In this document: in pieces, positions 8,704 through 59,491 of the stretch
Layout: the number at the start of each line of letters is the position of its first letter
Position numbering within the stretch: the stretch's first letter is position 1
DNA from: Clostridia bacterium
Lineage (GTDB): Bacteria; Bacillota; Clostridia; TANB77; CAG-465
DNA: 64,000 nucleotides
Direction: 5' to 3'
Assembly (NCBI GenBank): GCA_017626395.1
Contig: JAGAIU010000011.1
Location: 20,917-84,916 of the forward strand
Notes under the pieces: model-generated
Told to the model about the DNA's origin: nothing
Database searches by the model: none
The model's input: the letters and a program-made list of their open reading frames with translations, nothing else
Position numbers and translations under genes: made by a program

Positions 8704-9201
8704 ATGAGTGATATAACAGGTGACGCAATTACTGTACACGCAGCTGAAGATATCGTAAAAGCTATTGAACCAGTTGGAAGAACATCAGCTAAACAACAAC
8801 TTGTAAAAGCAATTGAAATGACAGCTACTGGAGCAAAATTAGCATCTTCTTCTACTAAACCTGAAGACTTTATTGGAGTAGTTAAAGCTGTTTCTGGAGA
8901 AGCAGTTATGTACTACGCTCAATCAAGAAACATTTCTTCACCTATTAGAGGAGCAAGTTTTATTCCTGCACCATTCTTTGAAGGACCAGTAGATGTACCT
9001 GCTGGAGCTGCATTAACAGTCGAAAGACATTGCATCAGTTATGTAATGGGAGCTACTAATATTAAATTTAATGATAATCTTGCATTAGATAATGATGGTA
9101 AATTTAAAGTAGCTAGTGGTAGTGACGCAGTCGTTGCAAAAGCAAAGTCTGACGCAGATGCAAATGGTGTTGTTAGAGCATCCATTTTGAGGACTGTATA
9201 G
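8704..9201 (+). CDS. hypothetical head protein (decoration/accessory candidate)
   Basis: 165 aa, Ala/Gly/Val-rich. Lies between the protease-scaffold and capsid candidates. Confidence 0.4.
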   Translation: MSDITGDAITVHAAEDIVKAIEPVGRTSAKQQLVKAIEMTATGAKLASSSTKPEDFIGVVKAVSGEAVMYYAQSRNISSPIRGASFIPAPFFEGPVDVPAGAALTVERHCISYVMGATNIKFNDNLALDNDGKFKVASGSDAVVAKAKSDADANGVVRASILRTV

Positions 9202-9213
9202 GAGGAATAAAAT

Positions 9214-10404
9214 ATGGCTAAAGATTTAATGAGTTTTACAGGTGTTAAAAACGCTCAATTTGCAGGTGGAGGTGCTGTATCTCACGATAACAGAATGGAC
9301 CCTATTTTATATGAAGATATGATTCAATATATTGAAGTTAATTCTCCATTTAGGGACATGTGTAGGGTTGTAACTACAGACCAATTTGTTATGGTTATAC
9401 CAAGAAAATGGCATGCTGGTATTGCTGTAGAAATTGTAGAAGGTTCTGAAATTCCTAAAGCAAGAGATGTCTACGATACCTTAAGTCTTAATTTAAGACA
9501 AAATGGTACTGGTATTAAAATAACAGATGAAGAGCAAAAATTAATGGGATTCGATTCCAATTACTTTGCTACTGAAGCTCAAAGAGCTACTGATAGGTTA
9601 CTTAAAAAAGAAAACGATGATATTGCTACTGTATTATTAGCAGGAGCAGGATATAATGTTATTGCATCAAGTAATAATACATTAAAATTCGATGATGTTT
9701 TAACTGCTAAAACAGAAATGTTAGAAAACCCATATGGTGTTGAACCTAATGTTATTTTAATGTCACATCGTTCTTACGCTGATTTAGTAAGAGACCCAGA
9801 ATTTAAAGAATACGATAAATCTGGTAAAACAAATGTTGTTAATACTGGAGATATCGGAAAAGAAATTGATGGATTAAGTATTAGAATTATTCCAGAAGTT
9901 GGAGATAACGTTTATTTAATCGACACATCATTACAGCCACTCATTTTAGTACAGATGGATGGTGTACATGTTGAATCTTACAGATTACATGAAACTCGTG
10001 AAGATGTATTAGACTTAACACTTTACGAAAAACCTGCAATCGTAAGACCAGATGCTATTACTAAAATTACTATTACAAGAAATGATGAACGTCCACAAAG
10101 AACCTTCCCAGCTGGATGGGACCCATATGATGGCTATCCTGATTTACCAGCAGATGAAGAAGAAGAAACACCTAAAAGAACCTTAACCTTTACTATTAAT
10201 GATGGTACAGACGCAATTGAAGGTGCTACTGTTACTATTGGTGACAAATCTGCTACTACTGGTGCATTAGGTGGTTGTACATTAGCTGATATCGAAGATG
10301 GTGAACAATCTGTTACTGTAAAAGCAACTGGATATGCCGATAAAACACAGACCATTACAGTATCTGAAAGCAGCACATCATTTACTATTAGTTTATCAGC
10401 ATAA
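9214..10404 (+). CDS. major capsid protein candidate with C-terminal Ig-like domain
   Basis: Strong RBS taggaggaataaaatATG. 396 aa. Positioned after the protease/scaffold. C-terminal TLTFTINDGTDAIEGATVTIGDK...VTVKATGYADKTQTITV is an Ig-like (Big/CarboxypepD-like) module. The HK97 fold itself was not verified. Confidence 0.5.
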   Translation: MAKDLMSFTGVKNAQFAGGGAVSHDNRMDPILYEDMIQYIEVNSPFRDMCRVVTTDQFVMVIPRKWHAGIAVEIVEGSEIPKARDVYDTLSLNLRQNGTGIKITDEEQKLMGFDSNYFATEAQRATDRLLKKENDDIATVLLAGAGYNVIASSNNTLKFDDVLTAKTEMLENPYGVEPNVILMSHRSYADLVRDPEFKEYDKSGKTNVVNTGDIGKEIDGLSIRIIPEVGDNVYLIDTSLQPLILVQMDGVHVESYRLHETREDVLDLTLYEKPAIVRPDAITKITITRNDERPQRTFPAGWDPYDGYPDLPADEEEETPKRTLTFTINDGTDAIEGATVTIGDKSATTGALGGCTLADIEDGEQSVTVKATGYADKTQTITVSESSTSFTISLSA

Positions 10405-37000: not shown

Positions 37001-40000
37001 ATAATGGTCAAGGATATGTTCCAGTAGATGCTGGAACTGTAGAATTTTATATAGATGATGAAATATTAAGTAGCAATACAACATTAGTAGATGGAGTATT
37101 TCTATCTTCTATTAATTCAATAGAAAACCCAGCAGGTAGTTATACATTATGGGCTAAATATTCAGGTACAGAATCTTATGTAGCTGTAGAAACATCACAA
37201 CCTTTTGAAATTATTGGTGGAAAAAGTAAAATATCTGTATTCGATATACAAGCAAAACCATATTCTATAATACAATTAAAAGCAAAAGTAACAGATGTAA
37301 ATAATAAAAATATAATTAGTGGATATGTAGATTTTAATATAAAAAATATACATGGCGAAGATGTAAATTTTAACACTAATATTACTAATATACCTGTTAA
37401 AAATGGTTTAGCAATATCTGATGATATATTATTAAGCGTTGAATTAGAATCAGATTTTAATACAGAAAGATACACTATTGAAGCAAAATACCATAATACT
37501 TTAGATTCAAATAACGATGAGTTATATGGGTCTAGTACAGCACAAGGTTATATTTTTGTAGCTAAAACAGATGTTATTTTAGATTATCAATCATTCTATG
37601 GTACACAATATGAACCTTTAGGTTTTTATGTTAGAGCAAGAGACGCAGAAACAGGTGCACCAGTATCTAATGGTAAAATAGCTATTACTTTAGAAACAGA
37701 AGGAGTAACTATTGAAGAAGAAGTAGATGATAAAGGAGTAGCTCGTTTAATTCATAATCCTTTAGATTTTAATGCAAAAGATTGGAGTGAATTAGAGAAA
37801 TTTTCTTTTGACGTTGTAGATGATGATTTACATAGATATTACAATGGAACAGAATTTATAGCTGATTTTGATTTCTTTTACAATGAACAAGATGGTACAT
37901 TACATTATATCAAAGGAAAACAAAATAATGAAAATAATGAAGTATCATTCATATATAATGCAGAAACTGGTAAATATGACATTATTGATACTGATACAAA
38001 TGATGTAATTGATGATTACGATAATGAACATTTATATATAACAAATGGTCATTTGTACGCAAGAACAACAAAAGATATATTGCGACAATATACAATTGGC
38101 ACACAAAATTTAAAAATCGAATACATTTCAAGTGGACAATATAGAAGTAAAACTGAATATTTTGATGATGGATTGCAAATTTCACAATCTAATATTGATT
38201 TAGATATACATTCATATGATTTAAAATATACAGATAACGATAGTATTATATGTTATGCAACAAAATACACTTTTACTGACGATATCAATACAGAAAATAT
38301 TAATAGTGGAAGTGTACAATTTATTGTAGACAATCAAGTATTAGATACAGTAAATATTGCTAATGGTAAAGCTATATTAAAAAATAGTCTTTTAACCAAT
38401 ATTAATGGTGGACAACATTTAATGTGCGTTAAATATGCTAATAATAATGATACTTCTTATTCTTATTCATTATTGAAGCTGACAAAAATGGAGCCATCAT
38501 TAAATATTTTAGTCGACCAAGAGATTAAAAATAAAAAATCTAATGTTATTGTTACTTTATCAGCTTCTGATAATTTAAATATACCTTTAAATGGATTGAT
38601 ATCATTATATTTAGATGATGAATTAATTGGCACACAATATCTTAATGGAAACGAGATGTTGCCTGGAATAATTGATGAATATAATATCGAAAGGTTAAAA
38701 GAAGAAATGCAATTATACTCTGAATCAGAACGTAACATATATATTCCTGGTGTTATTTTTAGTGTGTTAATGCCATATGATATAGATAATCATCAATTAG
38801 TAGCTAAATATGAGGGTAATGAGTTTTTGATGCCTAAAACTCAAACATATCAATTATCTCAAATACCTGCTGAAATACAAATTAATATAAAAAATAATAT
38901 TTATGTCGCTAGAAATGAGCCTTGTTTTATTGATGTTGATGTTACATATGAAGACGATATCATAAATGAAGGTAAAATAGTATTAACATATGGAGACGAA
39001 GAAATAGCATCATCAAATGTCCTTGACAATAAAGCTAGATTAACATGGACTCCATCATCAAATAATTTATTAAATACTTATGTAATTACTTACACAGGTT
39101 CAACAAATTACAAAGACAAACATATTACTGCAAATATAAATGTAATTGACCCACTTAAAACAATTACAATACCAAATGAACAACAACATACATTAGAAGA
39201 TGCATTAATGTGCTTACAATCAAATGGAACAATATACATTACAGACGATATTATATTAGAAAAAAGCATTGAAATCACAAAAGATTGTTCAATTATTGGT
39301 GAAAATGGTGTATCTATTATTAAGGATATTAAAGAGTTACCAATTGACTTTAATATTTTACAAAATATAAGCACAGAACAAATGCAACATATGTATAAGC
39401 TTGATTTATCTTTTGAAGATATTAATGCAACAGATTTTACTTTTATAGATAATCAGTTATATATAAAAGGTAAAACAGAAATGATACCTATATATTTAGC
39501 AGAGAATGGAGTATTTTATTCTGAAACACCATTATCAAAAATATTATCTGATTTAAATATTATTATAAAAGCAAATGTACATTTCGATAATTTAACCTTT
39601 AAATCTAATGACAGCAAAATATTAAATAATTTTGTAATTTATAACGAAAGCAATTGCTTAATTACTTATTCAATTATTGAAAAGACAGCTAAATTATATA
39701 ATAAAGGAAACATGACAGCCCATAGAAATCTAATCTATGGATTATGTCAAAATGTTACAGATTTAGATAATAATTGGTGGGGGTCAAATACACCACCATA
39801 CAACGTTAATAACCATATAATCATTGATGTTAAAGCAGTTAATACACCAGCAGTTATTAGCGAAGAAGTTGAAATAGAAGGAGAAATGATAGGTGCAAAT
39901 GGTCAATACTACACCATACCACAAACAGATTTTAGTTTTACTGCTGATAGTGGATATTTCTCTGTGGATACAGGTAAAGTAACAAATCAAAAAGCACATA

Positions 40001-43000
40001 CAACATATTTAGACGCTATTAAAGAAGGTAATGTTTACTTTACAGTTGATAATGAGACAGTAAAATGTCCAGTATATGATTATGAAAGAAAAACAGAAGT
40101 TATTATTGATGACATTGATGAAGTACTAATTAATTATCAAATGCCAATCACAGCAAAAGTACAAAGTTGTGCCGATGTATATTATGAATTTGACAATAAT
40201 AATAATATTACTGAAAGTACAAAAACAATCAATGAAGGATATATTGACTTCTATATCGATAACAAACAAGTAGGACATGAAGCTGTAAGAAAAGGTAAAG
40301 CTCAAGCAAAAATATTCTTTAAAGATGCAATTTATGAGGAAAACACAAAATACGAATTAAAAGCAATTTATCATTCATCTGATAATTATTTTGATTCTCA
40401 ATCATCAATTAATATAACAACTATTACAGATGAAGATGTTTGCTTTGTATCTACTTCAGGAAGTGATAATGGAAATGGTAATTATAGTAATCCTTTCTTA
40501 ACATTATCAAAAGCAATTGCATCTAATAATAAAAAAATATTTTTACTTGAAGGAGATTATTATGCTGAAAATATTATAGTCACACATAATGTATCTATTA
40601 AAAAATACAATGGAGAAGTGAATTTTTCAAATAATACAGGCAATATTTTATTTAATATACAACCTAATGTAAAATTAAATATTTCAAAAATTAATTTTAT
40701 AGAAAATCAAACAACAATATTATTTGACAATTCTGGTAGTTTAAATATAGAACAATGTATTTTTTATAAAAATAAAAGTACATTATTTAAAAATAACTTA
40801 ACATCAACTTTATTTTCAGTATCATTATGTGCTATAGTAGATAATTATTTAATATCTTCTAATATTAATCCTAATCATTATTCATATTGTTGGTTTGGAA
40901 CTAATTCCCCTTCAGATGATTTTAATGATTATATAGTAATGACTACTAAAGTATCAAAAGATAAAATATATATAGGTAGTTTAGCTCATATTACAGCAGA
41001 ATTGAAACATTATAGTCATAATGGAGTACAATATAATTTAGATAATCCATTACCATTAAGAATAGCTAAATTTGCCTCTGATATTGGTGAACTTAAACCT
41101 GTTAAAGATTACACTTATCATAATAGTAGTACAAGTTTAATTAATACATTAAAAGATAACAATACATCACAATATATTATTAAATTAAAAAATAGAGTAT
41201 ATTATGATTCAGAAAAAATTAATCTGTTATTTAATGTTACTAATGTATTTGACGAACCAGTAGAATCTGGAATTTTAAAAGTTGTGATTACAAGCGAGAA
41301 TAATAAATTAGAAAACACTATTGATATCATTAATGGTCAAGCTACTTATAATCTACCAACATTACCAATAGACGAATATAATGTTAGTTGCACATATATA
41401 AAAGAGCAAATATACAATTTAAATACAACTTTTGTTGTTAAACCATTAGATATTATATTGCAAAATATACAATTAGATGAGTTTTCACACTTATATTATA
41501 CTCATATTACTGGAACTGCTGTAGATAATTTAGGTCAAAATATTAACGATGAAATATTAGACATTAAAATTAATGATGACAATGTAGGGACATTAATAAT
41601 AAACGATGGCGTCATAAATCAACAAATATCCTATAATCTACTCAAACCAGGTCAATATGAAATTATTTTAACAAATGAAGATAGACGCACAAAATATGAT
41701 ACATTACACTATACAATACCTTTAATAGTTAAACCACAAAAAACATCCATTGCTTTTGATTATAATACTATTGAAAAAGATATTAGTAATAATCTTATTA
41801 TTGAAATATACGACAGCGAAGGTAGAGAAGTACAATCAGGAACAGTTAGAGTAGATTTTAATAACGTCATTTATGAAGAAAGTATATCAGTTAATAATGG
41901 TATCGCAATGTTAAATAACTTTAATATTGATAATAGTGGGCAATATCCAATTGCTATATATTATACCGATAATGATGGGTATTATAAAGACTCTGTTTAC
42001 ATCAATAATAACTTTGGTGTTGGCATATATGGCGTAACTTTTTCATTATCTGATACAGATATTATTACAGCAGATATAGGAAAACAATTTGCTTTAAATA
42101 CAACTATTAAAGATGTAGGTAATCAATTAGTGAATATAGGATATGTAAATGTTTACATTGATGACAGCTTGTACGTTCAAAACGTAGGAATCAATAATGG
42201 AAACGTAAGTATTATTTCAGAATTACCAGAAAATATATCTGCTGGACTACATAGACTTACTCTTGAATATATAGGCGATGATATATATTTAGATACTTAT
42301 TTAGATATTTATTTAAAAATAGGTCAAATTCAAACAGAAATAGGTATTATTAGTACTTCAGGTAAAAGTGGGCAAAAATCAACAATTAATTACACAATTA
42401 ATTCAATATATGGAAACGTTAATACTGGAACATTAACAGCTGTTTTCAACGAACAAATTATAGGTCAATCTATTGTTACTGATAATATTACTAATCAAAT
42501 AACATTTAATACACCATTTTTACCAGCAAATAATAACTATGAAATTACCTTTAAATATCACGACAGTAATAATAATTATGCAGATAGTAGTATTACAACA
42601 AAATTAATCATTGAAAGAAGTAATGTTATTATTACACCACAAAAAACATGGTATTATCCTCAAAAAGATTTTAATTTTATATTAGATGTAAGAGATGCCG
42701 AAGAAAAAATTATTGATAATGGTAAAATCGATTTATATGTTAATAATGTAAAAGAATATGAAGACATATCTATTGTTAATGGTCAAGCTGTTATTCCAAT
42801 GATTTTTAATAAGGCATCAACATATACTTTTGATATTGTATATCAAGAAGATGAATACTATTTACAAACTAAAAAAACAATTGACTTTAATGTTGATAGC
42901 GTTGTTATAGATGATATTAACTTTAAAGATGAATTGTCAAGCTTGCCAAATAGAATGTTTTCAACTGAATTAATCTTCACAACATTAGATGATTACATTG

Positions 43001-45456
43001 TAAAAGATGGTGTTGTCGATATTTTATTTGATAATAATGTCATAGCAAATTATTATATGGCTGAAAACAATAAATATGTTGATTTTAATATTGGAAATGA
43101 AACCAAAGGATTACATAAAATTACAATTAAATATTATAATTCATCATTATTTAAAGACTTTGAAAAAACATATGATTTCAATATAGAAGCTAAATCTATT
43201 GATTTACGTATTAACACAAATAGTGAATATCAAAGCCAAAACATTGAAGCTATTAGTAGCGATATTATCAGTATTCAAACTGATTTTATACTTGATAATA
43301 ATTATACTCCAATGTCTGGAATTGTTAATTATTACATAGGTATTCCACAATATAAGATTAACAGCAACAATGAAGAGTATATCGATAGTTACTACGATAG
43401 ACTTATTGGTCAAGAAGAGTTTATTAATGAGACATCTAAAACACATGAATATATTCTTACTAATGATTTATTAGCATATACTGCTGATAATTTAGAAACT
43501 CATTATAGAATTAAAGCACATTTCATAGGCAACGATGAATATGAAGAATCCATAGAAACAGTTGATTTAAATATATATAAGCAAAATACACATATTATTT
43601 TGCCTTCAGATATGCAATTTGAATATCAGAGCAAAATGAATGTTAATATAGATATTATTAATAATAATAATGAAAATATAATTGGCGTAGAAAATGTTGA
43701 TATATATTTAGACGATGTTTTAGTATCATCATGTAAAACTATAGATGGAAAAGGTACTTTTACTTATCAGTTAAAGAATAAACATGTTATAGGTACATAT
43801 GACTTACGTGCAGTATTTAATGGTTCAGCTGTTAATAATCCATCTGAAACTACTGTTAGTTTTACAGTAACACCATTTACACCAATACTTAAAACAAAAG
43901 ATATAGACATGTATATACATGGTCAAAATACTTTAGATAATATTATTTATGATAAAAATGGAGTTATTATAGAAAGTGGTACCCTTAAATATGATACTCA
44001 TAATGGCGTTTTAGAATCCAAACCTAATGTGCCAGATGTAGTATGGTTTGATTCTGCTTTCAGAGATGATTGGGAATTAGATGTAGAATATATTAGTGAT
44101 GATTTAACAAAATACAATAACTTTCATGATACAATTCATGTTCATATGCATAAAAACCCTATTGAATTATCAATATATGCACCAGAACAAATATATCGTG
44201 GCGTACCTTTTGATGTAACCTTAAAAGCAAAAGCCCCAACTACAGCATATGATGTGAATTTAGACTTTTATAAAGAAGATGATGAAAGATATGTCATGCT
44301 TAATGGCTCTACTACTATATCTTTAATTTACCCTACTACATTGGAAGATAATTCTATTATTGAGGATTATATTAAAACAGATGGTAATGATATTTTTGAA
44401 GCTAATGAAATTTTATTAAAATTAAAAGTTAAAAACCAAGATAATATTACTGTAAATACTTCAATACCAGAATCAGCAACTAACACACATTCAATTCAAA
44501 AAGCAATTGATTTAGTAAGTGATTATGGTAGTATAGAAATAAGTACGCCAATAAGTAATCAAACAATTAATTTAACTAAAAATCTTACAATCAAAGGCGA
44601 TGCTACACTAACAAATTGTGTAATTAATAACGAAAGCAATAAAATACGTATTGATGGACTTACCTTTGAAAATGGAGAAGACACATGTATCAATAACAAT
44701 GCAAACATGACCATAATGAATTGTACATTTAAAAACAATCAAAATTCAGCAATAAAAACAAATGGAGAATTAAACGTTACACAATGTACATTTATAGGCA
44801 ATAATGCAGAAAAAGGTGCATGTATAAAAATCGGCAATAAAAATTATAAAACTAGCATTACATACTGTACTTTTAATGGAAATAATGCATCATTATATGG
44901 TGGATGTATTTATTCTGATAAAGTAAATGACATGGAAATATATAATAATGAATTCTCAAATAATAACAATGCTGGTGTTGGTGGTTCATCTATATGTGCT
45001 TATGGAGATATAGCAATTTCATTTAATACATTTTTCAATAATGCAGGAACTAGCGATATTTACTTATTACGTGGAACAACAGTATTAGAAAATAATTTAT
45101 TTGATGGTGCTATTACATCATTAAAAACACTTGATGGTAATGATATAGATTGTGATTTAAATTACTGGGGTTATAATGATATTAATGATATTTATAGTAA
45201 TAACCCTAATATTGAAATAAATAACTTTTTAATATCTGATTGCGAAATCATAGAAAAAGAAACTGGAAATTATATTATAGGTAGGATTAATAAATATATA
45301 AATCGTTTAGAAAGTGAAATTACTACTATAAATATATTAGAAAAACATTTCCCAGTTAAATTAAATGAAGAGCAATTTTATTTAAATGATGAGATAGCTA
45401 TTGAAATGAATGATACCTTTATGATAGGTCAAGATATAATTCATATTGAACATTGA
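34009..45456 (+). CDS. giant adhesin-like tail fibre/receptor-binding protein (3815 aa): Ig-like repeat arrays plus three parallel beta-helix modules
   Basis: Many about 90-aa repeats with the G-x-V-x-F-x-I(N/D)...A-x-Y-x-G...Y signature. Three right-handed beta-helix (PbH1-like) blocks rich in N-x-(A/S/G) rungs, each ending in an N-x-W(W/F)G-x-N-(S/T)-P-like motif (39769..39795, 40884..40910, 45161..45181). Follows the baseplate genes. Confidence 0.7.
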   Translation: MDYQELEDVYEFHRNMRKTPWLQLFPHWWDENDALLNAIGNEVERVKAQAVFVLLNAGIKPPVLLWQESINHETFNAHFNAKQLPKTVTIQAPLYETWGKITLTNNTEKDIDGLILKLDNSHGYAINQLITQEDILVINLTENKVLLNKKQIEPQTIGEGMPYFVTQQNNEVYDTNTPLHNEVIRLEISTNDTENIECDIDIDIELENAVFTNEQNIEITGLEAVPIDRVELYVKYDFSFNSKYNGWQKAWEKEYEKNTNVVYDRITTQIYTKEFYVDVYFKTLQYPYTVGFPCYKEATSKSPYHVNSRLDKWGEQLGLPRRLYKTEIPTNEYYRTFPIFYPFDIEQDYWYYKRLTSEYSWVESPVNDVDIKDTDGNNVIRLYSINPFTEDFAVHAKSRYPVDKEFINYNDYHPIAISQQTAKDIGVQTPYKDIINLLSDNNKKASITLNNYTDNNDVVYKRNKYYQKYDYITELGEGVYREGWKEPDSYKKDISYIKSSTHQSTELITYFDLSSLPQDVNIENIEFIVEAESTDNKKNKYATENTGVLIPNYNDSERFFIPLTADKSYQLKKQEITYSNDEVIDYLNNIKIADENIRQSFTIGEFQGKITDFVKIPFELEENSENVDDITDVWIYYNGNIRQASYKNDENGKYIYAYVPNLPIINTLTIICKSQTHKPFSYTINVNKYNQYSEDGTTIEYQYIQGPIVNDEHNEISDYVEWHTDNLRNLMQKQGIYFRHILKNTDEQSSTTVFLYNIQAKITYSPKKSNFKITTNITKKSDFPKIGTLNIKVENTGEKNFSSNVDIITPSNIVLSQNNIPIDLKVGQSLEKDIDITATYPIDDGFYDIVTICEDSIKKDSIEIFSDGLIATGVNLKSHHGKYNDTINLKAEVYAIDGGKINGTDSQVQFYINGFAVGNKVQVVDGLVEASISPKDYYFTGTGNLTLEAKFLGTTKYASSSNKSTIFISKDTTRIELISDNVAPYKGAFELKAKVEYYNGQGYVPVDAGTVEFYIDDEILSSNTTLVDGVFLSSINSIENPAGSYTLWAKYSGTESYVAVETSQPFEIIGGKSKISVFDIQAKPYSIIQLKAKVTDVNNKNIISGYVDFNIKNIHGEDVNFNTNITNIPVKNGLAISDDILLSVELESDFNTERYTIEAKYHNTLDSNNDELYGSSTAQGYIFVAKTDVILDYQSFYGTQYEPLGFYVRARDAETGAPVSNGKIAITLETEGVTIEEEVDDKGVARLIHNPLDFNAKDWSELEKFSFDVVDDDLHRYYNGTEFIADFDFFYNEQDGTLHYIKGKQNNENNEVSFIYNAETGKYDIIDTDTNDVIDDYDNEHLYITNGHLYARTTKDILRQYTIGTQNLKIEYISSGQYRSKTEYFDDGLQISQSNIDLDIHSYDLKYTDNDSIICYATKYTFTDDINTENINSGSVQFIVDNQVLDTVNIANGKAILKNSLLTNINGGQHLMCVKYANNNDTSYSYSLLKLTKMEPSLNILVDQEIKNKKSNVIVTLSASDNLNIPLNGLISLYLDDELIGTQYLNGNEMLPGIIDEYNIERLKEEMQLYSESERNIYIPGVIFSVLMPYDIDNHQLVAKYEGNEFLMPKTQTYQLSQIPAEIQINIKNNIYVARNEPCFIDVDVTYEDDIINEGKIVLTYGDEEIASSNVLDNKARLTWTPSSNNLLNTYVITYTGSTNYKDKHITANINVIDPLKTITIPNEQQHTLEDALMCLQSNGTIYITDDIILEKSIEITKDCSIIGENGVSIIKDIKELPIDFNILQNISTEQMQHMYKLDLSFEDINATDFTFIDNQLYIKGKTEMIPIYLAENGVFYSETPLSKILSDLNIIIKANVHFDNLTFKSNDSKILNNFVIYNESNCLITYSIIEKTAKLYNKGNMTAHRNLIYGLCQNVTDLDNNWWGSNTPPYNVNNHIIIDVKAVNTPAVISEEVEIEGEMIGANGQYYTIPQTDFSFTADSGYFSVDTGKVTNQKAHTTYLDAIKEGNVYFTVDNETVKCPVYDYERKTEVIIDDIDEVLINYQMPITAKVQSCADVYYEFDNNNNITESTKTINEGYIDFYIDNKQVGHEAVRKGKAQAKIFFKDAIYEENTKYELKAIYHSSDNYFDSQSSINITTITDEDVCFVSTSGSDNGNGNYSNPFLTLSKAIASNNKKIFLLEGDYYAENIIVTHNVSIKKYNGEVNFSNNTGNILFNIQPNVKLNISKINFIENQTTILFDNSGSLNIEQCIFYKNKSTLFKNNLTSTLFSVSLCAIVDNYLISSNINPNHYSYCWFGTNSPSDDFNDYIVMTTKVSKDKIYIGSLAHITAELKHYSHNGVQYNLDNPLPLRIAKFASDIGELKPVKDYTYHNSSTSLINTLKDNNTSQYIIKLKNRVYYDSEKINLLFNVTNVFDEPVESGILKVVITSENNKLENTIDIINGQATYNLPTLPIDEYNVSCTYIKEQIYNLNTTFVVKPLDIILQNIQLDEFSHLYYTHITGTAVDNLGQNINDEILDIKINDDNVGTLIINDGVINQQISYNLLKPGQYEIILTNEDRRTKYDTLHYTIPLIVKPQKTSIAFDYNTIEKDISNNLIIEIYDSEGREVQSGTVRVDFNNVIYEESISVNNGIAMLNNFNIDNSGQYPIAIYYTDNDGYYKDSVYINNNFGVGIYGVTFSLSDTDIITADIGKQFALNTTIKDVGNQLVNIGYVNVYIDDSLYVQNVGINNGNVSIISELPENISAGLHRLTLEYIGDDIYLDTYLDIYLKIGQIQTEIGIISTSGKSGQKSTINYTINSIYGNVNTGTLTAVFNEQIIGQSIVTDNITNQITFNTPFLPANNNYEITFKYHDSNNNYADSSITTKLIIERSNVIITPQKTWYYPQKDFNFILDVRDAEEKIIDNGKIDLYVNNVKEYEDISIVNGQAVIPMIFNKASTYTFDIVYQEDEYYLQTKKTIDFNVDSVVIDDINFKDELSSLPNRMFSTELIFTTLDDYIVKDGVVDILFDNNVIANYYMAENNKYVDFNIGNETKGLHKITIKYYNSSLFKDFEKTYDFNIEAKSIDLRINTNSEYQSQNIEAISSDIISIQTDFILDNNYTPMSGIVNYYIGIPQYKINSNNEEYIDSYYDRLIGQEEFINETSKTHEYILTNDLLAYTADNLETHYRIKAHFIGNDEYEESIETVDLNIYKQNTHIILPSDMQFEYQSKMNVNIDIINNNNENIIGVENVDIYLDDVLVSSCKTIDGKGTFTYQLKNKHVIGTYDLRAVFNGSAVNNPSETTVSFTVTPFTPILKTKDIDMYIHGQNTLDNIIYDKNGVIIESGTLKYDTHNGVLESKPNVPDVVWFDSAFRDDWELDVEYISDDLTKYNNFHDTIHVHMHKNPIELSIYAPEQIYRGVPFDVTLKAKAPTTAYDVNLDFYKEDDERYVMLNGSTTISLIYPTTLEDNSIIEDYIKTDGNDIFEANEILLKLKVKNQDNITVNTSIPESATNTHSIQKAIDLVSDYGSIEISTPISNQTINLTKNLTIKGDATLTNCVINNESNKIRIDGLTFENGEDTCINNNANMTIMNCTFKNNQNSAIKTNGELNVTQCTFIGNNAEKGACIKIGNKNYKTSITYCTFNGNNASLYGGCIYSDKVNDMEIYNNEFSNNNNAGVGGSSICAYGDIAISFNTFFNNAGTSDIYLLRGTTVLENNLFDGAITSLKTLDGNDIDCDLNYWGYNDINDIYSNNPNIEINNFLISDCEIIEKETGNYIIGRINKYINRLESEITTINILEKHFPVKLNEEQFYLNDEIAIEMNDTFMIGQDIIHIEH

Positions 45457-52467: not shown

Positions 52468-53547
52468 ATGCTTACAATATATGAATTAAGAGATTATTTA
52501 GAAGAATTTATTGAAGAAAAAAAAGAAGTAAAAAATATCACAAATGCTACGATGAAAAAGCAAACCATTAATATAAAAAATTTTATAAAATGGCTAGAAA
52601 AAGAAAACATACAACAAATAGACAACAGAAATATAAAGAGATGCTTAAGAAAATATCGTAGCTACTGCTTAAATGAAAGGAATAATAAAAGAACCACAGT
52701 CAAGACATACCTGCTAAATGTGATAGATTTTTTAAATTACGAAGAAATCAGAATAATAACAGGACATGAAAAAATACACATCAAAGAAATAATAGAAGTC
52801 AAAAGCGAAAATCCTGATACAGCAAGAAAACGTATTGAAAAAATATCACTAACAAGAAAACAAACTGATTTCTTTTTAGACACAGTAAAAAGAACTGGCA
52901 ACATTAAAAACTATGCAATATGCAGAACTTTTATTGAAACTGGCATGAGATTAAAAGAACTTGTACTATTAGATAAAACAGATATAAAAGTACCATTAAA
53001 TAAACAAGGACTTTATATACTACCAAACGATAAATATGAAATAATTGAAGTACATTTAAGAGCAGAAAACACAAAAGGACAATACAAAAGCAGAACCACA
53101 TTTATAACATATGACACACTTGTTGCTATCAATCAAATGATAATGTCACGCATAATCGACTACCAAAAAAAGAAATATCAACGTGATATAATTAAAGTCA
53201 GAAAAAAAAGAGTAGAAAACGAAATAAATCGTCAAGAACTATTTACAGCAGAAGGAGATAGAAGATTCACCAGACGTGGAGTACAAAGTTTAATTAAGCA
53301 ACAAACAAAAAACTGCGATACAAGAATAGAAGAAGAAAATATAAAATGCCCAATCAATTACTTTAAAAATGTTAGCACACATATATTAAGACACACAGCA
53401 TTATCTCGTTACGCTGAAATATTAACAGTAGCAGAAGTGCAAACAATAGCTGGACATGCTAGTAGTTCTACAACAGATAGATACATACATATTGACCATA
53501 GTAAAATAAAAGAAAAAATTAGAATGAGTATGGAGGAAGATAAATGA
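52468..53547 (+). CDS. int: tyrosine recombinase / phage integrase
   Basis: Arg I in ETGMRLKEL. H-x-x-R in HILRHTALSRYAE. Catalytic Tyr context GHASSSTTDRYIHI. N-terminal SAM-like domain. 359 aa. Confidence 0.85.
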   Translation: MLTIYELRDYLEEFIEEKKEVKNITNATMKKQTINIKNFIKWLEKENIQQIDNRNIKRCLRKYRSYCLNERNNKRTTVKTYLLNVIDFLNYEEIRIITGHEKIHIKEIIEVKSENPDTARKRIEKISLTRKQTDFFLDTVKRTGNIKNYAICRTFIETGMRLKELVLLDKTDIKVPLNKQGLYILPNDKYEIIEVHLRAENTKGQYKSRTTFITYDTLVAINQMIMSRIIDYQKKKYQRDIIKVRKKRVENEINRQELFTAEGDRRFTRRGVQSLIKQQTKNCDTRIEEENIKCPINYFKNVSTHILRHTALSRYAEILTVAEVQTIAGHASSSTTDRYIHIDHSKIKEKIRMSMEEDK

Positions 53548-53904: not shown

Positions 53905-54681
53905 ATGAATAAAAAATTAATTATTTTATTAATTATTTTCGCAATTGCTTCATTAAATACTGTAAGTGCTGGAAACAATACAACAGTAGTTGATAATCCT
54001 ATAGTGGTTGTAGAAGATGGTCCTACAGTAGAAGCATTAGAAAGTGGTGATTCTAACATATCCTTTAGTAATGGATACAAAGGATACTGTATTGAATGGG
54101 GAGAACATTCAGCAGAAGCTGGAGATAAATTTTACATTCATGAAGACGTAGATAACAATATAAAAGTATTCTTTACATACTTCTACAAAGAATCACAAAA
54201 AGACACCATAGCAACACAACATATGATTTGGAAATTTACAGATAACAAAGAGTTCAGCAGATTTAATCAAACATTATATAATCAAATTATAAATGTATCA
54301 AAAAATATAAAAGTACCTAATGAAGGTACATTAAAAATAGACAATACAACAGAAATGGTATTCAGTTTCAAAAATTTTGTCTCACCAATATCACAACATC
54401 AAAATTATTTCGGCTATAAGATTTTTTTCAGAAATATTACCCATCAAATAAATGAATCTTCGACCAATAATATTACACTTATATTACCACAACTATATAA
54501 TTATGAAAGCAACTTTACATTTAATGAAGTGATTATTAATAAAAGTAATAATTCAACTCATACATCTACATCAAGTAGTGAAAAAATATTATTCTCTAAA
54601 CATGTTACTGGAGTCAACCTCCCATGGTATTTCATTTGCGTCATATTCATGATATTCGGGATTATAATAATAAGAACGTAA
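53905..54681 (+). CDS. secreted, C-terminally membrane-anchored protein (possible lysogenic-conversion/exclusion protein)
   Basis: Signal-peptide-like MNKKLIILLIIFAIASLNTVSAGNNTT. N-glycosylation sequons (NxS/T) are frequent. C-terminal LPWYFICVIFMIFGIIIIRT anchor. Confidence 0.45.
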   Translation: MNKKLIILLIIFAIASLNTVSAGNNTTVVDNPIVVVEDGPTVEALESGDSNISFSNGYKGYCIEWGEHSAEAGDKFYIHEDVDNNIKVFFTYFYKESQKDTIATQHMIWKFTDNKEFSRFNQTLYNQIINVSKNIKVPNEGTLKIDNTTEMVFSFKNFVSPISQHQNYFGYKIFFRNITHQINESSTNNITLILPQLYNYESNFTFNEVIINKSNNSTHTSTSSSEKILFSKHVTGVNLPWYFICVIFMIFGIIIIRT

Positions 54682-55002
54682 CTCATCAGCTGTTGTTGTT
54701 GGTGTATAAGCTATAATTTTTTGTTTTTTATTTTTTATTTTTAAACGCTTATCTAAAAAATTTTTTGCTCTCCAGAAGTCTGGGTCATAAAAAATACTTA
54801 ATGGATTATCAGGATGTAAAGATATTAACTTCCAAACCCATTCATTCGGATTTAAACCTTTAGGTTTTGTATAAGTTGCTGGATGAATAATTCTTATTCT
54901 ATAATTCATATCAATTTTCTTCTTCACCATTCCAAACCCACGCATCACATACTTTAACCTTACCTGCATCACATGACATATAAGGATGAGAACAATTATC
55001 AC
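54589..55002 (-). CDS. hypothetical protein; likely real start at internal Met (MVKKK, about 54930)
   Basis: The first 24 codons overlap the upstream gene and are hydrophobic junk-like. Basic and W-rich protein. Last gene of the leftward accessory operon. Convergent 3' overlap with 53905..54681. Confidence 0.35.
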   Translation of the reverse strand: MIIVLILICHVMQVRLKYVMRGFGMVKKKIDMNYRIRIIHPATYTKPKGLNPNEWVWKLISLHPDNPLSIFYDPDFWRAKNFLDKRLKIKNKKQKIIAYTPTTTADELRSYYYNPEYHEYDANEIPWEVDSSNMFRE

Positions 55003-55540
55003 AACTTTTATTTTGAACTCTTTTACCTTTACGACAACGTATTAAACAATCTTCTCTACAATAACGCTTTTCTATATTTAATTCTTCTTCAGAGTCAGCA
55101 TGATATTCTTTATCTAAAATAGAACAATTATTATCCCAACATGATTCATCTATTGGTAAATTATTTATAATTTCTTCTGCCCTTTTATTATATGAATCAT
55201 CTATATCACGATAAACCTTCTCATAAAAATTATCACAAGTCATATCAAAAAACATATAAGCAGTAAGTTGTTTATTAAGTTCATAAAAACCTTTTTCAGC
55301 CATTTTATTTGCAAAAACTTTCTCATAATCCCAAAAAATATCATCAAAAGTAAAATTAATTCTAGGATAACAAACAGAAATAGGGTCGTTATCAATTTTA
55401 TACTGACAACATTCCTTAAACAATTGAAAGACTATATCTTCAAATTCTTCTTGAGTATATTTATCATTTGAATAATATATAGTTTCATAATGTTCTTCAT
55501 ATCCACCAGCTAAAAGTTTATAAAAATATATCATTTCCAT
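54911..55540 (-). CDS. Cys-rich hypothetical protein (209 aa), putative metal-binding C-terminal domain
   Basis: CWDNNC...CREDCLIRC...CDNCSHPYMSCDAGKVKVCDAW. Lies in the leftward accessory operon. Confidence 0.45.
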   Translation of the reverse strand: MEMIYFYKLLAGGYEEHYETIYYSNDKYTQEEFEDIVFQLFKECCQYKIDNDPISVCYPRINFTFDDIFWDYEKVFANKMAEKGFYELNKQLTAYMFFDMTCDNFYEKVYRDIDDSYNKRAEEIINNLPIDESCWDNNCSILDKEYHADSEEELNIEKRYCREDCLIRCRKGKRVQNKSCDNCSHPYMSCDAGKVKVCDAWVWNGEEEN

Positions 55541-55713
55541 GCCTCCTGTAATAATGTTATAGTTTGTATAGTAAAACTAAAAAATATCATTCCAAATAAA
55601 AAAGAAGGTAAATTTAAAGGATATTGTGTATTAATAACACCTGCAAATATTAATATAATTGGTGCTATAACAGCACAATATATTATTAAAATAAATATAG
55701 GTTTCCATTTCAT
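55531..55713 (-). CDS. small membrane protein (60 aa)
   Basis: Two hydrophobic helices (IFILIIYCAVIAPIILIFAGV; FLFGMIFFSFTIQTITLL). Overlapping start/stop with its neighbours. Confidence 0.35.
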   Translation of the reverse strand: MKWKPIFILIIYCAVIAPIILIFAGVINTQYPLNLPSFLFGMIFFSFTIQTITLLQEAWK

Positions 55714-56141
55714 AATAATCTTAAATCTCCAGTAATATTATCTATATCTTCCCTAGTAAAAGGACCAATACCTAAACAAGTAATTGAGCCATTAGTTACT
55801 TCAGTACGTCCTTCATCAATTACTAAAGCATTAGGAATCTTTTGTTCATCAGCTGCTCTTTTTAACTCTAATAAATCTGAAGTTGTCTCAACTTGTAAAA
55901 CAATTTTAGGATAAGAATTATCCAACCAACCAGCAGCTACAGACTCATTAGCTTCTAATAAAGATAATACTGATGCATGAGCTACTTGTGCAGCAATCTT
56001 ACCAACTGACATTCCTAAACTTTTATTAACCACTATAACTTGTTTGAAGTCTCCATCTTTGAAATTTTTATTAAATTTAATTGCTCTTAAAAAACCATTT
56101 GCTTTTAAAACATCTATTTTAACATTGTTTGTATCTTTCAT
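55710..56141 (-). CDS. pth2: peptidyl-tRNA hydrolase, archaeal/eukaryotic type (Pth2)
   Basis: GMSVGKIAAQVAHASV and DEGRTEVTNGSITCLGIGPFTREDIDNITGDLRLL align closely with the PTRH2/Pth2 family (KMGKGKVAAQCSHAAV ... [35 protein letters not shown]). 143 aa. Confidence 0.85.
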   Translation of the reverse strand: MKDTNNVKIDVLKANGFLRAIKFNKNFKDGDFKQVIVVNKSLGMSVGKIAAQVAHASVLSLLEANESVAAGWLDNSYPKIVLQVETTSDLLELKRAADEQKIPNALVIDEGRTEVTNGSITCLGIGPFTREDIDNITGDLRLL

Positions 56142-56145
56142 AATA

Positions 56146-56988
56146 TCACTCTTCCATTTCTTCTAAAATTTGACGAAATCTAGTATTATAAATTTCTATA
56201 TCTGGTAACTCTTGCTTTTTACCTTGAGCAGTTTTAGCAACCTGTAAAAAAGTATGTATCCAATTACTTAAGTTCATAATTGCTCGCTCACTTAAGCGAT
56301 TAAGTTTGCAATTACTTTTGTAATAATCTATGCAATCACGCATATCTTGTAATAATTGGTCGGAAAATTGTAACCCATCAATTTCAAGGTCTTTGAATTT
56401 ATCTAAAAGCTCATCGATTTTAATTGGAGCATTGATGTCGTCGAACTCATCAATTAATAACCAAGCAAGTATTTGACGAATACAGTAGCAATATGTTTTG
56501 ACAACACGTGGGGAGAAATCATCTGTACGTGTGCCTTTAATATACTTCATGTAGTTGTTATAAGTCATACTACCATATGCATGTTTTAATGTGGTTAAAT
56601 CAAAATCAGGCAATCCTTTTAAGAAATTACAATCACCACGATAAATCATAGTGTGTAATATGTGCTCTCGTAAGTTAGGGTTACTTTTTCTGTATTGAGA
56701 AAGAACTTTAGTAATATCCCATCCAGAAAAATCTAAATCATATAAATACTCTTTTTCTTCTAAATCATGATTATCAATAACATCTCTCATTGTATCTATA
56801 CGTAAGTAATCTTTTACAGGTCTTATATAGAAAAAACGTATATCATAATCAGAATCTTCATTAGAAAAGCCCCAGCCACGAGAACCAGTTTCAACAGCAT
56901 ATAAAACTTTTACATTAAATTCCTCTTCAATGTTATCAAGCTCTTGATTTACATAGTCGTAAATATCTTTATCAATACCATTAATCAT
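56146..56988 (-). CDS. Pol-beta-superfamily nucleotidyltransferase with C-terminal helical domain (predicted NTase)
   Basis: N-terminal LYAVETGSRGWGFSNEDSDYDIRF matches h-G-S-x(9-13)-D-h-D-h. A further acidic strand YDLDFSG. 280 aa. Lies immediately upstream (in operon order) of pth2. Confidence 0.6.
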   Translation of the reverse strand: MINGIDKDIYDYVNQELDNIEEEFNVKVLYAVETGSRGWGFSNEDSDYDIRFFYIRPVKDYLRIDTMRDVIDNHDLEEKEYLYDLDFSGWDITKVLSQYRKSNPNLREHILHTMIYRGDCNFLKGLPDFDLTTLKHAYGSMTYNNYMKYIKGTRTDDFSPRVVKTYCYCIRQILAWLLIDEFDDINAPIKIDELLDKFKDLEIDGLQFSDQLLQDMRDCIDYYKSNCKLNRLSERAIMNLSNWIHTFLQVAKTAQGKKQELPDIEIYNTRFRQILEEMEE

Positions 56989-57190
56989 TAAAAAACCTCC
57001 ATAATCGTCTTATAACCCTATTATTATGTTGCCAATGGTTGCATAAATTATCAGGATTTTTAAATAACATATCTTTATCACATACAAAAGTTCTTAAGCC
57101 CATACCCTTTCTAATAATACCATCAGGTGATATATATTCATCATTTTTAAGAATTGTACAATATTGACAGTTTTCACAAGAAGGTATCAT
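56981..57190 (-). CDS. small zinc-ribbon protein (69 aa)
   Basis: CENCQYC...VCDKDMLFKNPDNLCNHW. Confidence 0.4.
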   Translation of the reverse strand: MIPSCENCQYCTILKNDEYISPDGIIRKGMGLRTFVCDKDMLFKNPDNLCNHWQHNNRVIRRLWRFFND

Positions 57191-57600
57191 TCCTCATCAC
57201 CTTCAAGGATAACATCAAATACTGCTCCTAAAAATTTCTTTTGCCCCATTAAATCATATGCTTTTTTAATTAAATTTTTCCCTTTACCATCAAACATATC
57301 CTTAAAATCAACTGGCATATTACCTTCTTGTATATAAAGTATAGGGTTTCCAACTTGTGGAATTAACATATTATAACTTCCATCTTTACTTGTAAAAATT
57401 TCACACACTTTTCCAGTATCACAATCATCTGGAAACGCATTAGAAAAAGATTCATTATCTTCTATAGTAGTATGAATATATAAATCACTATGAATTGGTG
57501 TCCCTTCTGGAAACATACTTAAAAATTCTATAAATTCATCAGTTGTCCATTTATATGCATTATCCCATCTATCTTTTCCTACTTGCTTGTACATCAACAT
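57187..57600 (-). CDS. hypothetical protein (137 aa)
   Basis: Overlapping start/stop within the leftward operon. No motif. Confidence 0.4.
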   Translation of the reverse strand: MLMYKQVGKDRWDNAYKWTTDEFIEFLSMFPEGTPIHSDLYIHTTIEDNESFSNAFPDDCDTGKVCEIFTSKDGSYNMLIPQVGNPILYIQEGNMPVDFKDMFDGKGKNLIKKAYDLMGQKKFLGAVFDVILEGDEE

Positions 57601-57883
57601 CTATATCTACCTCAATACTTCTTAACGCTTGAATAGGTGTAATACTTACTAAACCTGTCTTATAATCAATTAAAAAATTTTTTAAAAACCCACCATTCCA
57701 CATGGGCTTAATCTCGTTTTCATATATATAATCAAGTACACAAGGAATTACTACAGTAGTCTTGGTTCCTTTAAGGGTGTTAAAATCCTTAAAATCTGCT
57801 CTTGAAAAATCAGCTTGACACTCTTTTATTCTTTCTGATGCGTACTTAATAATCTCGTAAATATCTTCCTTCATATAAAACAC
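57569..57883 (-). CDS. hypothetical protein (104 aa)
   Basis: Within the leftward operon. No motif. Confidence 0.4.
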   Translation of the reverse strand: MFYMKEDIYEIIKYASERIKECQADFSRADFKDFNTLKGTKTTVVIPCVLDYIYENEIKPMWNGGFLKNFLIDYKTGLVSITPIQALRSIEVDIDVDVQASRKR

Positions 57884-57948
57884 AAATTATCCATAAAATA
57901 CAAGCTGTACACTCTTTAGGTACAGGAGCGTTTACATAATCAATTACG

Positions 57949-58500
57949 CTATTCATTAAATCGTCTGACACTATATCTATCCTCTGTAACTGTACACAAA
58001 TCTGTAAAATCTGTTTTTGGCACAAAACTCATTTCATCAACTTCAAAAGTTGTATCGCCAATAGTCATAGTTCCCCCACCACATTTAATGCTATGTTTAT
58101 CATAAAAATCTTGTACAGGACCTATAATAATACCTTTAACTTCTTCACGATATTCACCATCGAATAAATCTAATACTCGTCCATTGCCAGAATAATACTG
58201 CCTACCATCAGTATAATAGAAAGTATTAGCATCTAATATATCATTAGGATAGTTTTCATAATTAGGAAAGGGCTCAAAAAGATATTTGCCACCACATAAA
58301 TGTAAAACATTTTCATAATTTTCGGCAGGCATAATATATGCTGGTGGCTCAATGCAATGGATAAAAGTAAAAGTCATTGTTGTATAAAGACTTACATTAT
58401 ATTCATCATACAATTTTTTAATCTTATCAGCTGTAGCAAACCATGGGTTTTCATAATAGAATATTGCACTTTCACAGGCACTATAATCTTCAGGTTTCAT
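57949..58500 (-). CDS. hypothetical protein (183 aa), first gene of the leftward accessory operon
   Basis: Aromatic-rich (Y/F/N). Starts right at the divergent promoter region. Confidence 0.4.
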   Translation of the reverse strand: MKPEDYSACESAIFYYENPWFATADKIKKLYDEYNVSLYTTMTFTFIHCIEPPAYIMPAENYENVLHLCGGKYLFEPFPNYENYPNDILDANTFYYTDGRQYYSGNGRVLDLFDGEYREEVKGIIIGPVQDFYDKHSIKCGGGTMTIGDTTFEVDEMSFVPKTDFTDLCTVTEDRYSVRRFNE

Positions 58501-58612
58501 TTAAAATCACCATATAGTATTCGATATAATTAATCATATAATTAATTATGCAATTAATCATTTAAATACTTAACTACTTTAGAAATTACAGTATTAATTT
58601 AAGGTGATAGTC
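58501..58612. promoter_or_regulatory. divergent promoter/operator region with three contiguous 12-bp direct repeats (ATAATTAATCAT / ATAATTAATTAT / GCAATTAATCAT at 58526..58561)
   Basis: Read directly. Lies between the leftward accessory operon and the rightward endolysin gene. RBS aaggtga at 58601..58607. Confidence 0.4.
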
Positions 58613-59491
58613 ATGACTAAAAAAGAAAACGTTGCTAAAATAGCAAAAGAAGTTAAAACAAGCGTGGAAAAAAAATATAAAATTCCAAGCAAAACAGATG
58701 CAGGAATAGGATATACCTATCCTGAATATGCATATATATTAGCAAAAGCAGTTATAACACCAGGTAAAGATGTTGCACATAAAAAGAACATAGGTGAGGC
58801 ACCTAAACCTTCTGGAAGTACAATATCAAGAACAGTTAAAAAAGGAGACTATGTAAAATTAGCTAAAAATTTAATATCTTTTGTAGACAATAACAAAAGA
58901 CTACCAAATTATCTTACATATGGTGGATACAAAATTAGAACTAGAGTATATATTGATGCTTTTGCCAGAATAGTTAATTATTATTACACTAATAAAAGAA
59001 TGCCTGCTTATGTAAATGTAAACAGTAAAGCATTTACCAAACCATCAACAGCAGCACAAAGTAAAGACGAAGTATTTAATTACTTTGTTAAAAAATTCGG
59101 TAATGTTAAAACTATCGATGAAGCCTTTAATAAGGTAAAAGAACGGGGATATGGATATTATTACGACGACGTCTACTCTAACAAGACTTCTATCGATAGA
59201 ATGTATTCTAAATCAGGTATTAACTGTACAGACAGTTGTCAAGTATTTTGGCACATAGGTAAAGCATTAGGATATTCCGTTCGTTGTTTACACGTTAGAT
59301 GTTCAGGTGGAGATGGACACGTAAGATTACAGTTTAAACATCCTAAAAATACAGAAGGAAATTGGATTAATCGTGACCCAGCTGCAATTTTATCAGCTAA
59401 TGGTCGTCCATTAACTTATAATTGGTGTACTTCCAATTACACATTATTAGCGACTAATCCGAGCTGGTTTACTGCTAATCTCAACAGATAA
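58613..59491 (+). CDS. PeiW/PeiP-like pseudomurein endoisopeptidase (endolysin) with pseudomurein-binding repeat; ORF-track start 58604 is a GTG, and the ATG at 58613 is preferred
   Basis: N-terminal KGDYVKLAKNLISFVDNNKRLPNYLTYGGYKI plus a second partial copy (...NKRMPAYVNV) resembles the PMBR. C-terminal NCTDSCQVFWHIGKALGYSVRCLHVRCSGGDGHVRLQF...NWINRDPA is the Cys-His-Asp core. Confidence 0.7.
   Translation: MTKKENVAKIAKEVKTSVEKKYKIPSKTDAGIGYTYPEYAYILAKAVITPGKDVAHKKNIGEAPKPSGSTISRTVKKGDYVKLAKNLISFVDNNKRLPNYLTYGGYKIRTRVYIDAFARIVNYYYTNKRMPAYVNVNSKAFTKPSTAAQSKDEVFNYFVKKFGNVKTIDEAFNKVKERGYGYYYDDVYSNKTSIDRMYSKSGINCTDSCQVFWHIGKALGYSVRCLHVRCSGGDGHVRLQFKHPKNTEGNWINRDPAAILSANGRPLTYNWCTSNYTLLATNPSWFTANLNR

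Follow-up and report, generated by a model that had tools for sequence, protein, structure and literature searches.

The 64,000-nucleotide stretch of contig JAGAIU010000011.1 analyzed here (the window) represents a tailed virus or provirus whose host is a methanogen with a pseudomurein wall, and it encodes its own peptidyl-tRNA hydrolase of the Pth2 family. This enzyme belongs to a distinct Pth2 clade of methanogen viruses, carries a basic N-terminal helix, and is encoded directly behind the nucleotidyltransferase (NTase) RlaP in a recurrent operon that has no ligase; no description of the clade, of the helix, or of the ligase-less operon was found in the searched literature. The Pth2 family, its fold, and virus-encoded Pth2, including one from an archaeal virus, are already known, and the novelty is modest. 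Our preferred explanation, to which we assign a probability of roughly 0.55, is that a working Pth2 coexpressed with RlaP forms a cassette for tRNA and translation salvage or for counterdefense. The central features are as follows.

55710 to 56141, minus strand: Pth2-family peptidyl-tRNA hydrolase, 143 aa, identified by PF01981, TIGR00283, solved relatives, and AlphaFold (AF2)/Foldseek comparison.
56049 to 56141, minus strand: clade-specific basic N-terminal extension (codons 1 to 31), absent from compared cellular Pth2 and helical in the AF2 model.
56146 to 56988, minus strand: RlaP-family Pol-beta NTase, 280 aa, with its stop codon 4 nt before the Pth2 start.

Profile and structural comparisons agree on the identity of the 143-aa product. 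The open reading frame (ORF) runs from ATG to stop and is matched by the PTH2 profile PF01981 with an E value of 7.7e-35 (120 bits, cutoff 23) over profile positions 1 to 115 of 115. Its score for the NCBIfam equivalog TIGR00283 (arch_pth2), 110.8 bits, exceeds the cutoff of 82, whereas that for NF003314 falls narrowly short (122.3 bits, cutoff 126); phrog_1866 is matched as well. The nearest solved structures are the archaeal Pth2 entries 1rlk, 1wn2, 1rzw, and 1xty (E values of 1e-21 to 1e-23). An AF2 model built from a 92-sequence alignment had a predicted local distance difference test (pLDDT) score of 92. When queried through Foldseek against the Protein Data Bank (PDB), it matched 3erj, 1wn2, and 1xty with target-normalized template-modeling (TM) scores of 0.87 to 0.91 and root mean square deviations of 1.2 to 1.8 Å; with 1q7s included, these ranges become 0.87 to 0.92 and 1.2 to 2.3 Å. 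The agreement of these lines of evidence is far above chance, and we conclude that ORF 55710-56141 is a full-length Pth2 with the Pth2 alpha/beta fold.

The surrounding genes establish the viral setting. Genes for a large terminase, a portal protein, and baseplate J lie in the window, together with those for a tyrosine integrase and for a pseudomurein endoisopeptidase (Pei) that bears PMBR repeats. The integrase indicates that the virus is probably temperate, and the Pei with its PMBR repeats indicates a host range of pseudomurein-walled methanogens. The hosts are probably Methanobrevibacter-like and AT-rich. The G+C content of the window is 24 to 34%. No tRNA genes are present in the window. 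Against the GenBank phage set, the sole match of the window was a 3% match on the Pei gene of a Methanobacteriales virus. A sequence-only reading of this DNA had proposed a virus-encoded Pth2 with an NTase beside it, and all three elements of that proposal, the enzyme, the viral setting, and the neighbor described below, were borne out.

In Sulfolobus solfataricus Pth2, the catalytic residues are Lys18, Asp86, and Thr90, roles that were reportedly assigned by Fromant and colleagues in 2005. Alignment with 1xty places these residues at K48, D109, and T113 of the window protein. Conservation was judged in two alignments, one of 22 and one of 92 sequences; both take in cellular archaeal Pth2, and the larger also includes Pth2 from host Methanobacteriales. 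Four residues (K48, H55, D109, and G111) do not vary in either alignment, and T113 is nearly invariant. Within the viral clade, the GK...H motif is present in 65 of 68 clusters and the D..T motif in 63 of 68. Nei-Gojobori ratios of nonsynonymous to synonymous substitution (dN/dS) between viral copies ranged from 0.13 to 0.31, with 0.03 for the closest pair (dS 0.10) and with dS near saturation in many pairs, demonstrating that the viral Pth2 lineage is under purifying selection. The sequence-only reading had allowed for a catalytically dead protein; with all three residues in place, the window copy is apparently intact and is predicted to be catalytically competent. One RlaP-linked subclade, comprising loci L036 to L038 and L130 (10843-11241), has Asn at the position of S. 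solfataricus T90 (DEGLNE or DEGMNE) and retains the Lys, His, and Asp.

The N-terminal extension sets the clade apart from the cellular enzymes. It is ∼31 residues long and rich in Lys and Arg, and residues 11 to 29 are predicted by AF2 to form a helix (pLDDT of ∼84). Among the solved structures and host proteins used for comparison, Pth2 begins at the position of window residue 32 or 33. N-terminal extensions in some cellular loci were considered and rejected as tblastn read-through 5′ of the true start codon. In the window, a Shine-Dalgarno-like GAGTGAT lies 4 nt 5′ of the Pth2 ATG. The extension is conserved in a viral subclade of 137- to 155-aa proteins (neighbor-joining [NJ] bootstrap of 0.93), and a second viral Pth2 subclade, of 112 to 117 aa, is without it. 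Its presence is not correlated with that of RlaP.

A large protein search with the window Pth2 returned ∼67 clusters at 52 to 99% identity, and wherever the contexts of these homologs were inspected (L001 to L006, L031 to L038, and L130 to L132), all were viral. In most of these loci, a lysin of the Pei or PMBR/DUF4015 type adjoins Pth2 or lies a few short genes away on the opposite strand, and large Ig-like and tail fiber proteins are found in the surroundings. In the longer loci (L001 and L002, L004 to L006, L031 to L034, and L130 and L131), the RlaP/Pth2 unit has a Pei- or PMBR-type gene beside it or close by, the PMBR matches in these related loci being mostly weak or faint. Pei marks the conserved position of the Pth2 island.

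The host lineage was recovered separately. Methanobrevibacter sp. OttesenSCG-928-I08 (L056) encodes a 112-aa Pth2 with 50% identity to the window protein, and with it as the query, we retrieved 120 Methanobacteriales orthologs. At this locus (8114-10339), the host gene adjoins the gene for the ribosome-recycling ATPase ABCE1 divergently, with RadB and aEF-1beta close by, a neighborhood that fits a role of host Pth2 in ribosome rescue. Over 112 core alignment columns, mean identity was 65% between viral copies (minimum of 42%) and 64% between host Methanobacteriales copies; between viral and host copies it was 43%, between viral and other archaeal Pth2 46%, and between viral Pth2 and Pth2 from bacterial genomes 48%. 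NJ trees (300 bootstraps) on the same 112 columns, which have limited resolution, recovered the host clade in 65% of replicates. A viral-plus-host clade appeared in 0 of 300 replicates, and in none of the 300 did the window Pth2 group with host sequences alone. The whole viral clade had weak NJ support (36%), and its sister group was not resolved by this method.

Given the viral-only contexts, the low viral-host identity, and the lack of a viral-plus-host clade, we place the window Pth2 in an old, diverse virus-borne lineage separate from the host Pth2 lineage. Recent capture from the host was rejected on the 50% identity to the L056 protein, the 43% viral-host mean, and the bootstrap count. 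The phylogeny suggested in the sequence-only reading thus points to a long-standing viral lineage, conserved in related viruses, and away from a recent pickup. Scans of Genome Taxonomy Database (GTDB) genomes and Joint Genome Institute (JGI) metagenomes with the Pth2 alignment gave, among the matches listed, cellular or distant Pth2 only (at most 53% identity), with no provirus copies among those matches; the host Pth2 of L056 came from these scans. A Pth2 scan of IMG/VR gave only distant phage Pth2 (at most 43% identity), and the window's virus group seems to be absent from IMG/VR, apart from one RlaP-only relative (L133).

The 280-aa neighbor matches PF10127 with an E value of 1.4e-39 (136.8 bits, cutoff 23) and phrog_14344, a nucleotidyltransferase family, with an E value of 1.1e-41. 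Across 41 homologs, its NTase motifs (G35-S36...G40, D47-x-D49, and D86/D91) show no variation. Judged by PF10127 together with the Pol-beta NTase motifs (hG[GS], DxD, and a third Asp), it is a bona fide member of the RlaP family. A PDB sequence search with RlaP, as a single sequence and as a profile, gave no match. RlaP adds one or two nucleoside monophosphates to RNA 3′-OH ends, prefers damaged RNA, and helps to restore aminoacylation of repaired tRNA (PMC12776372).

RlaP is directly upstream of Pth2 in five lineages: the window with L005, L001 to L004, L032 and L033, L036 to L038, and L130 to L132. In four of the five, the gap is 4 to 5 nt or the frames overlap. Pth2 is probably cotranscribed with RlaP and possibly translationally coupled to it. 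RlaP also occurs without Pth2, in L124 (60% identity), in L127 to L129 (72%), and in the IMG/VR contig L133 (71%). The genomic association of RlaP with an RNA ligase is absent from the window and present for the cellular Methanobrevibacter homolog. In L125 (7001-8995), from an uncultured Methanobrevibacter sp., a RlaP gene (48% identity to the window RlaP) is followed directly by an RNA ligase gene (PF09414/PF21189). The two genes make up a classical repair pair of RlaP and ligase in what is presumed to be the host genus.

The contigs bearing Pth2 or RlaP cluster at ∼145 to 170 kb, L127 (2706-3413) being on a contig of 170 kb and IMG/VR L133 of 168.5 kb. In one RlaP-only relative, small ORFs form a long series on one strand, a TFIIB-family gene among them. 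These observations suggest a group of large (∼150-kb) methanogen viruses encoding a transcription factor B homolog.

Pth2 is widespread in bacterial phages, and the description of a viral copy as unexpected in the sequence-only reading was overstated. By tblastn, Pth2 is present in 48 GenBank phage records at 30 to 43% identity, and the IMG/VR scan found it in 24 loci; PHROGs holds a family for it. In a comparative analysis of jumbo phages, both RlaP and PTH2 are interpreted as counterdefense genes for RNA repair and ribosome rescue (PMC7824862). In the nanohaloarchaeal tailed virus DNTV-1, ORF50 encodes Pth2 beside ORF51, a T4-like RNA ligase 2, in a genome with 29 tRNAs (bioRxiv 10.1101/2025.02.15.638363). 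As precedents for a viral Pth2 close to genes of tRNA repair or translation, prophi86-1 has RtcB, an RF-1-like gene, and a tRNA array nearby, and Phabba has a CCA-adding enzyme. In phiM12, a RelA/SpoT gene lies near Pth2.

Relative to these systems, the window gene combines shared and distinctive traits. With the cellular archaeal Pth2 of S. solfataricus (1XTY), A. fulgidus (3ERJ), P. horikoshii (1WN2), and Methanobrevibacter (L056), it shares the family, the fold, the Lys/Asp/Thr positions, and a full-length core. It is 39 to 50% identical to them and differs in the basic helix, in a viral accessory cassette in place of the ABCE1, RadB, and aEF-1beta neighborhood of the host copy, and in a position outside Methanobacteriales Pth2 in trees. 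The PTH2 proteins of mycobacteriophages Myrna, Phabba, and prophi86-1, of the Sinorhizobium phiM12 group, of jumbo phages, and of PHROG 1866 have the same virus-borne core and are sometimes found near tRNA arrays, RtcB, RF-1-like genes, or CCA-adding enzymes. The window virus, in contrast, has an archaeal host that already uses Pth2, and its gene stands in a tight two-gene operon with RlaP, within a clade that has its own N-terminal helix. DNTV-1, compared by description only, is likewise an archaeal tailed virus with an archaeal-type Pth2 beside an RNA-repair enzyme; its partner is an RNA ligase accompanied by 29 tRNAs, whereas the window partner is RlaP, with no ligase detected and no tRNA genes. 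With the RlaP-RNA ligase modules (RtcB-RlaP-RtcA of Pseudomonas, NrdC.11 of T4, and Methanobrevibacter L125), the window RlaP shares PF10127 membership and the NTase motifs, but the place beside it is held by Pth2 instead of a ligase.

The reading as salvage or counterdefense, the latter among the roles suggested by the sequence-only reading, is the most compatible with these data because the partner of Pth2 is an RNA-repair enzyme. In this proposal, whose substrates, trigger, expression timing, and functional coupling to RlaP we infer, Pth2 would strip peptidyl or N-blocked aminoacyl groups from tRNAs released by stalled or aborted ribosomes, and RlaP would restore one or two nucleotides on damaged RNA 3′ ends. 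Together they could keep the tRNA pool usable under attack by ribotoxins, be these host abortive-infection or toxin-antitoxin nucleases or the toxins of competitors, and could likewise preserve it when heavy viral translation leads to abortive translation. That no viral ligase was detected would fit repair of the tRNA 3′ acceptor end without ligation or a reliance on host ligases. A sharper form of this proposal, which we regard as quite unlikely in its full detail, is that RlaP and Pth2 constitute a ligase-independent pathway of tRNA acceptor-end repair against a methanogen defense or toxin that hits the 3′ ends of charged tRNAs. Pth2 would then deacylate the damaged or trapped tRNA before RlaP rebuilds the missing 3′-terminal nucleotides, and the basic N-terminal helix may help to recruit tRNA or ribosomes.

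Several observations weigh against the salvage or counterdefense reading. Pth2 occurs without RlaP in the three sister lineages L006, L031, and L034, and in two of these, L031 (8001-8360) and L034 (8001-8405), the catalytic Lys is replaced by Glu (GE or SE for GK), so that Pth2 is dispensable in some viruses. A tblastn search with the L125 RNA ligase gave no match in the window or related viral loci, and Pfam scans that covered the window ORFs of at least 100 aa, apart from the giant pair and some of the small frames, found no ligase family. Local hmmsearch placed Pth2 within 6 kb of RlaP in 2 of 80 RlaP-bearing IMG/VR loci and found RlaP in 0 of 184 Pth2-bearing loci. RNA-related genes are only sporadic around phage Pth2: among 78 neighboring proteins, the 25 commonest Pfam families include four related to RNA or translation (RNA_ligase, RF-1, PP-loop, and PhoH), each with one member. 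Furthermore, the host has its own Pth2 (L056), and a need for a second copy is something we infer. The tight RlaP-Pth2 operon is particular to the window's group of methanogen viruses and is not a general rule. The two IMG/VR exceptions, L199 (3403-3819 and 6001-6477) and L212 (4445-4921 and 6001-6612), are large viral contigs of 156 and 226 kb in which Pth2 lies ∼1 to 2 kb from RlaP.

The substitutions in L031 and L034 raise the question of whether Pth2 is a decaying or moonlighting passenger, either being lost or serving a noncatalytic role such as binding of tRNA or ribosomes through the basic helix, which is new in this clade. The L034 protein has also exchanged the His for Asn and lost the D-G-x-T motif, and dN/dS is raised to 0.27 to 0.68 in pairs that include it. 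The L031 protein is truncated at its N terminus. Both loci are without RlaP and retain a 195-aa Cys-rich neighbor, and their Pth2 changes could represent independent decay or a move to a noncatalytic role. For these two lineages, the passenger explanation is true. It is not true of the window copy, for which, as a general account, it is improbable: the catalytic residues are retained there and in 65 of 68 clade clusters, dN/dS among viral copies is 0.03 to 0.31, and the core fold is canonical. A general translation booster is unlikely, although less so; here the virus would gain peptidyl-tRNA recycling for late, very large, AT-rich structural genes, and RlaP would be an unrelated neighbor. Phage growth is reportedly sensitive to Pth activity, as described for lambda bar minigenes and pth(rap) mutants by Garcia-Villegas and colleagues in 1991, work that PMC6514570 cites. 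Phage papers usually annotate Pth as an auxiliary gene supporting translation (PMC9127768), and the window combines giant ORFs (17239-25737, 2832 aa; 34009-45456, 3815 aa) with a lack of tRNA genes. However, the premise that these proteins contain poly-Asn and low-complexity tracts, as the sequence-only reading had it, is weak and was overstated: the two ORFs hold seven NNNN runs in total, four at the extreme C terminus of the 2832-aa product and three scattered in the 3815-aa product, and no long low-complexity tracts. The cassette also lies on the strand opposite to the structural operon, beside the integrase and lysin, as an accessory island and unlike a late gene; its recurrent tight operon with an RNA-repair enzyme would go unexplained; and sister viruses with equally large proteins either lack Pth2 (L124) or lack its catalytic Lys (L031 and L034).

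Two further alternatives concern toxins. N-blocked aminoacyl-tRNA is a standard Pth2 substrate, and the intact catalytic residues of the window protein would suit an antidote to tRNA-acylating GNAT toxins of the TacT, AtaT, or ItaT type, produced by the host or by rival elements. Bacterial Pth1 indeed detoxifies TacT-acetylated Gly-tRNA (PMC9241777). We nonetheless consider such a role very unlikely, for neither the window nor the examined loci yielded a GNAT toxin, the host Pth2 should already suffice, and RlaP would be left without a role. The least probable explanation, and one we rejected, is the suggestion of the sequence-only reading that Pth2 is the antidote of the adjacent NTase, with RlaP as a tRNA-modifying toxin resembling MenT and the pair stabilizing the provirus or excluding other viruses as a toxin-antitoxin or abortive-infection system. 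NTase toxins acting on tRNA 3′ ends, such as MenT, do exist, and both genes are small, adjacent to each other, possibly translationally coupled, and part of an accessory island in a virus that is probably temperate. Yet each gene occurs without the other, RlaP in L124, L127 to L129, and L133 and Pth2 in L006, L031, and L034; hydrolysis of a peptidyl ester would not undo nucleotide addition; cellular Methanobrevibacter RlaP is partnered with an RNA ligase; neither RlaP nor Pth2 matches the PADLOC defense models; and the RlaP enzymes characterized so far act in RNA repair and give damaged tRNA its function back (PMC12776372).

Pth2 and RlaP are part of a nine-gene minus-strand cassette that occupies positions 58500 to 54589 and lies between the genes for the integrase and Pei. 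The remaining features of this region are as follows.

52468 to 53547, plus strand: tyrosine integrase (PF00589, E value of 3.5e-11).
54589 to 54909, minus strand: last cassette gene, ∼106 aa, with its ATG 1 nt past the stop of the 209-aa gene.
54911 to 55540, minus strand: 209-aa Cys-rich protein, the second recurrent neighbor of viral Pth2.
55531 to 55713, minus strand: 60-aa hydrophobic protein, its start overlapping the Pth2 stop (ATGA).
56981 to 58500, minus strand: four upstream cassette genes of 183, 104, 137, and 69 aa in overlapping or abutting frames.
58501 to 58612, no strand assigned: divergent intergenic region between the cassette and Pei, AT-rich, ∼100 nt.
58604 to 59491, plus strand: Pei with PMBR repeats (PF12386, E value of 9.4e-15; PF09373, E value of 2.9e-12).

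Homologs of the 209-aa protein with 33% identity are encoded directly downstream of Pth2 in the RlaP-less loci L006, L031, and L034. The family has seven invariant Cys residues and, in an exhaustive search, had only 25 representatives among 1.84 billion proteins. It received no Pfam, PHROG, NCBIfam, or PADLOC assignment, and its single-sequence AF2 model (pLDDT of 38) was unusable. The 60-aa protein, for which Pfam and PHROG gave no family match, is found elsewhere only in the near-identical contig L005. The four upstream genes are likewise conserved only in L005 and match nothing in Pfam, PHROG, PADLOC, or NCBIfam. The ∼106-aa gene had no PADLOC match, and a PHROGs scan of the longer ORF 54589-55002 was empty. 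Its 3′ end overlaps convergently (54589-54681, ∼90 nt) with that of a plus-strand 258-aa ORF (53905-54681), whose product has a signal-like segment at its N terminus and weakly matches a thioester domain (TED).

The divergent intergenic region contains two direct TGATTAATT repeats (∼58528-58560) around AATTAATT palindromes and a GGTGAT ribosome-binding site toward each side; the TGATTAATT/AATTAATT element could serve a divergent control region as its operator or promoter. The listed GTG start of Pei (58604) is probably wrong, as an ATG at 58613 (M-T-K-K-E-N) follows the GGTGAT at ∼58601-58606. Elsewhere in the window, a 369-aa ORF (7594-8703) matches NF045541, a prohead protease/major capsid fusion, with an E value of 6.8e-14 and probably represents the part of the structural module that encodes the prohead protease or scaffold.

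The practical value of these findings lies mainly in annotation: an ordinary enzyme family is placed in a new viral clade, and no new kind of system is described. The RlaP-Pth2 operon also supplies a concrete genetic context in which RlaP may act without a dedicated ligase, at a time when RlaP biochemistry is only recent. If the salvage or counterdefense reading is true, the viruses that infect gut and rumen methanogens are equipped with genes of their own for tRNA and translation salvage, and conflicts directed at tRNA and translation, which are well documented between bacteria and phages, would also shape the interactions of methanogens with their viruses.

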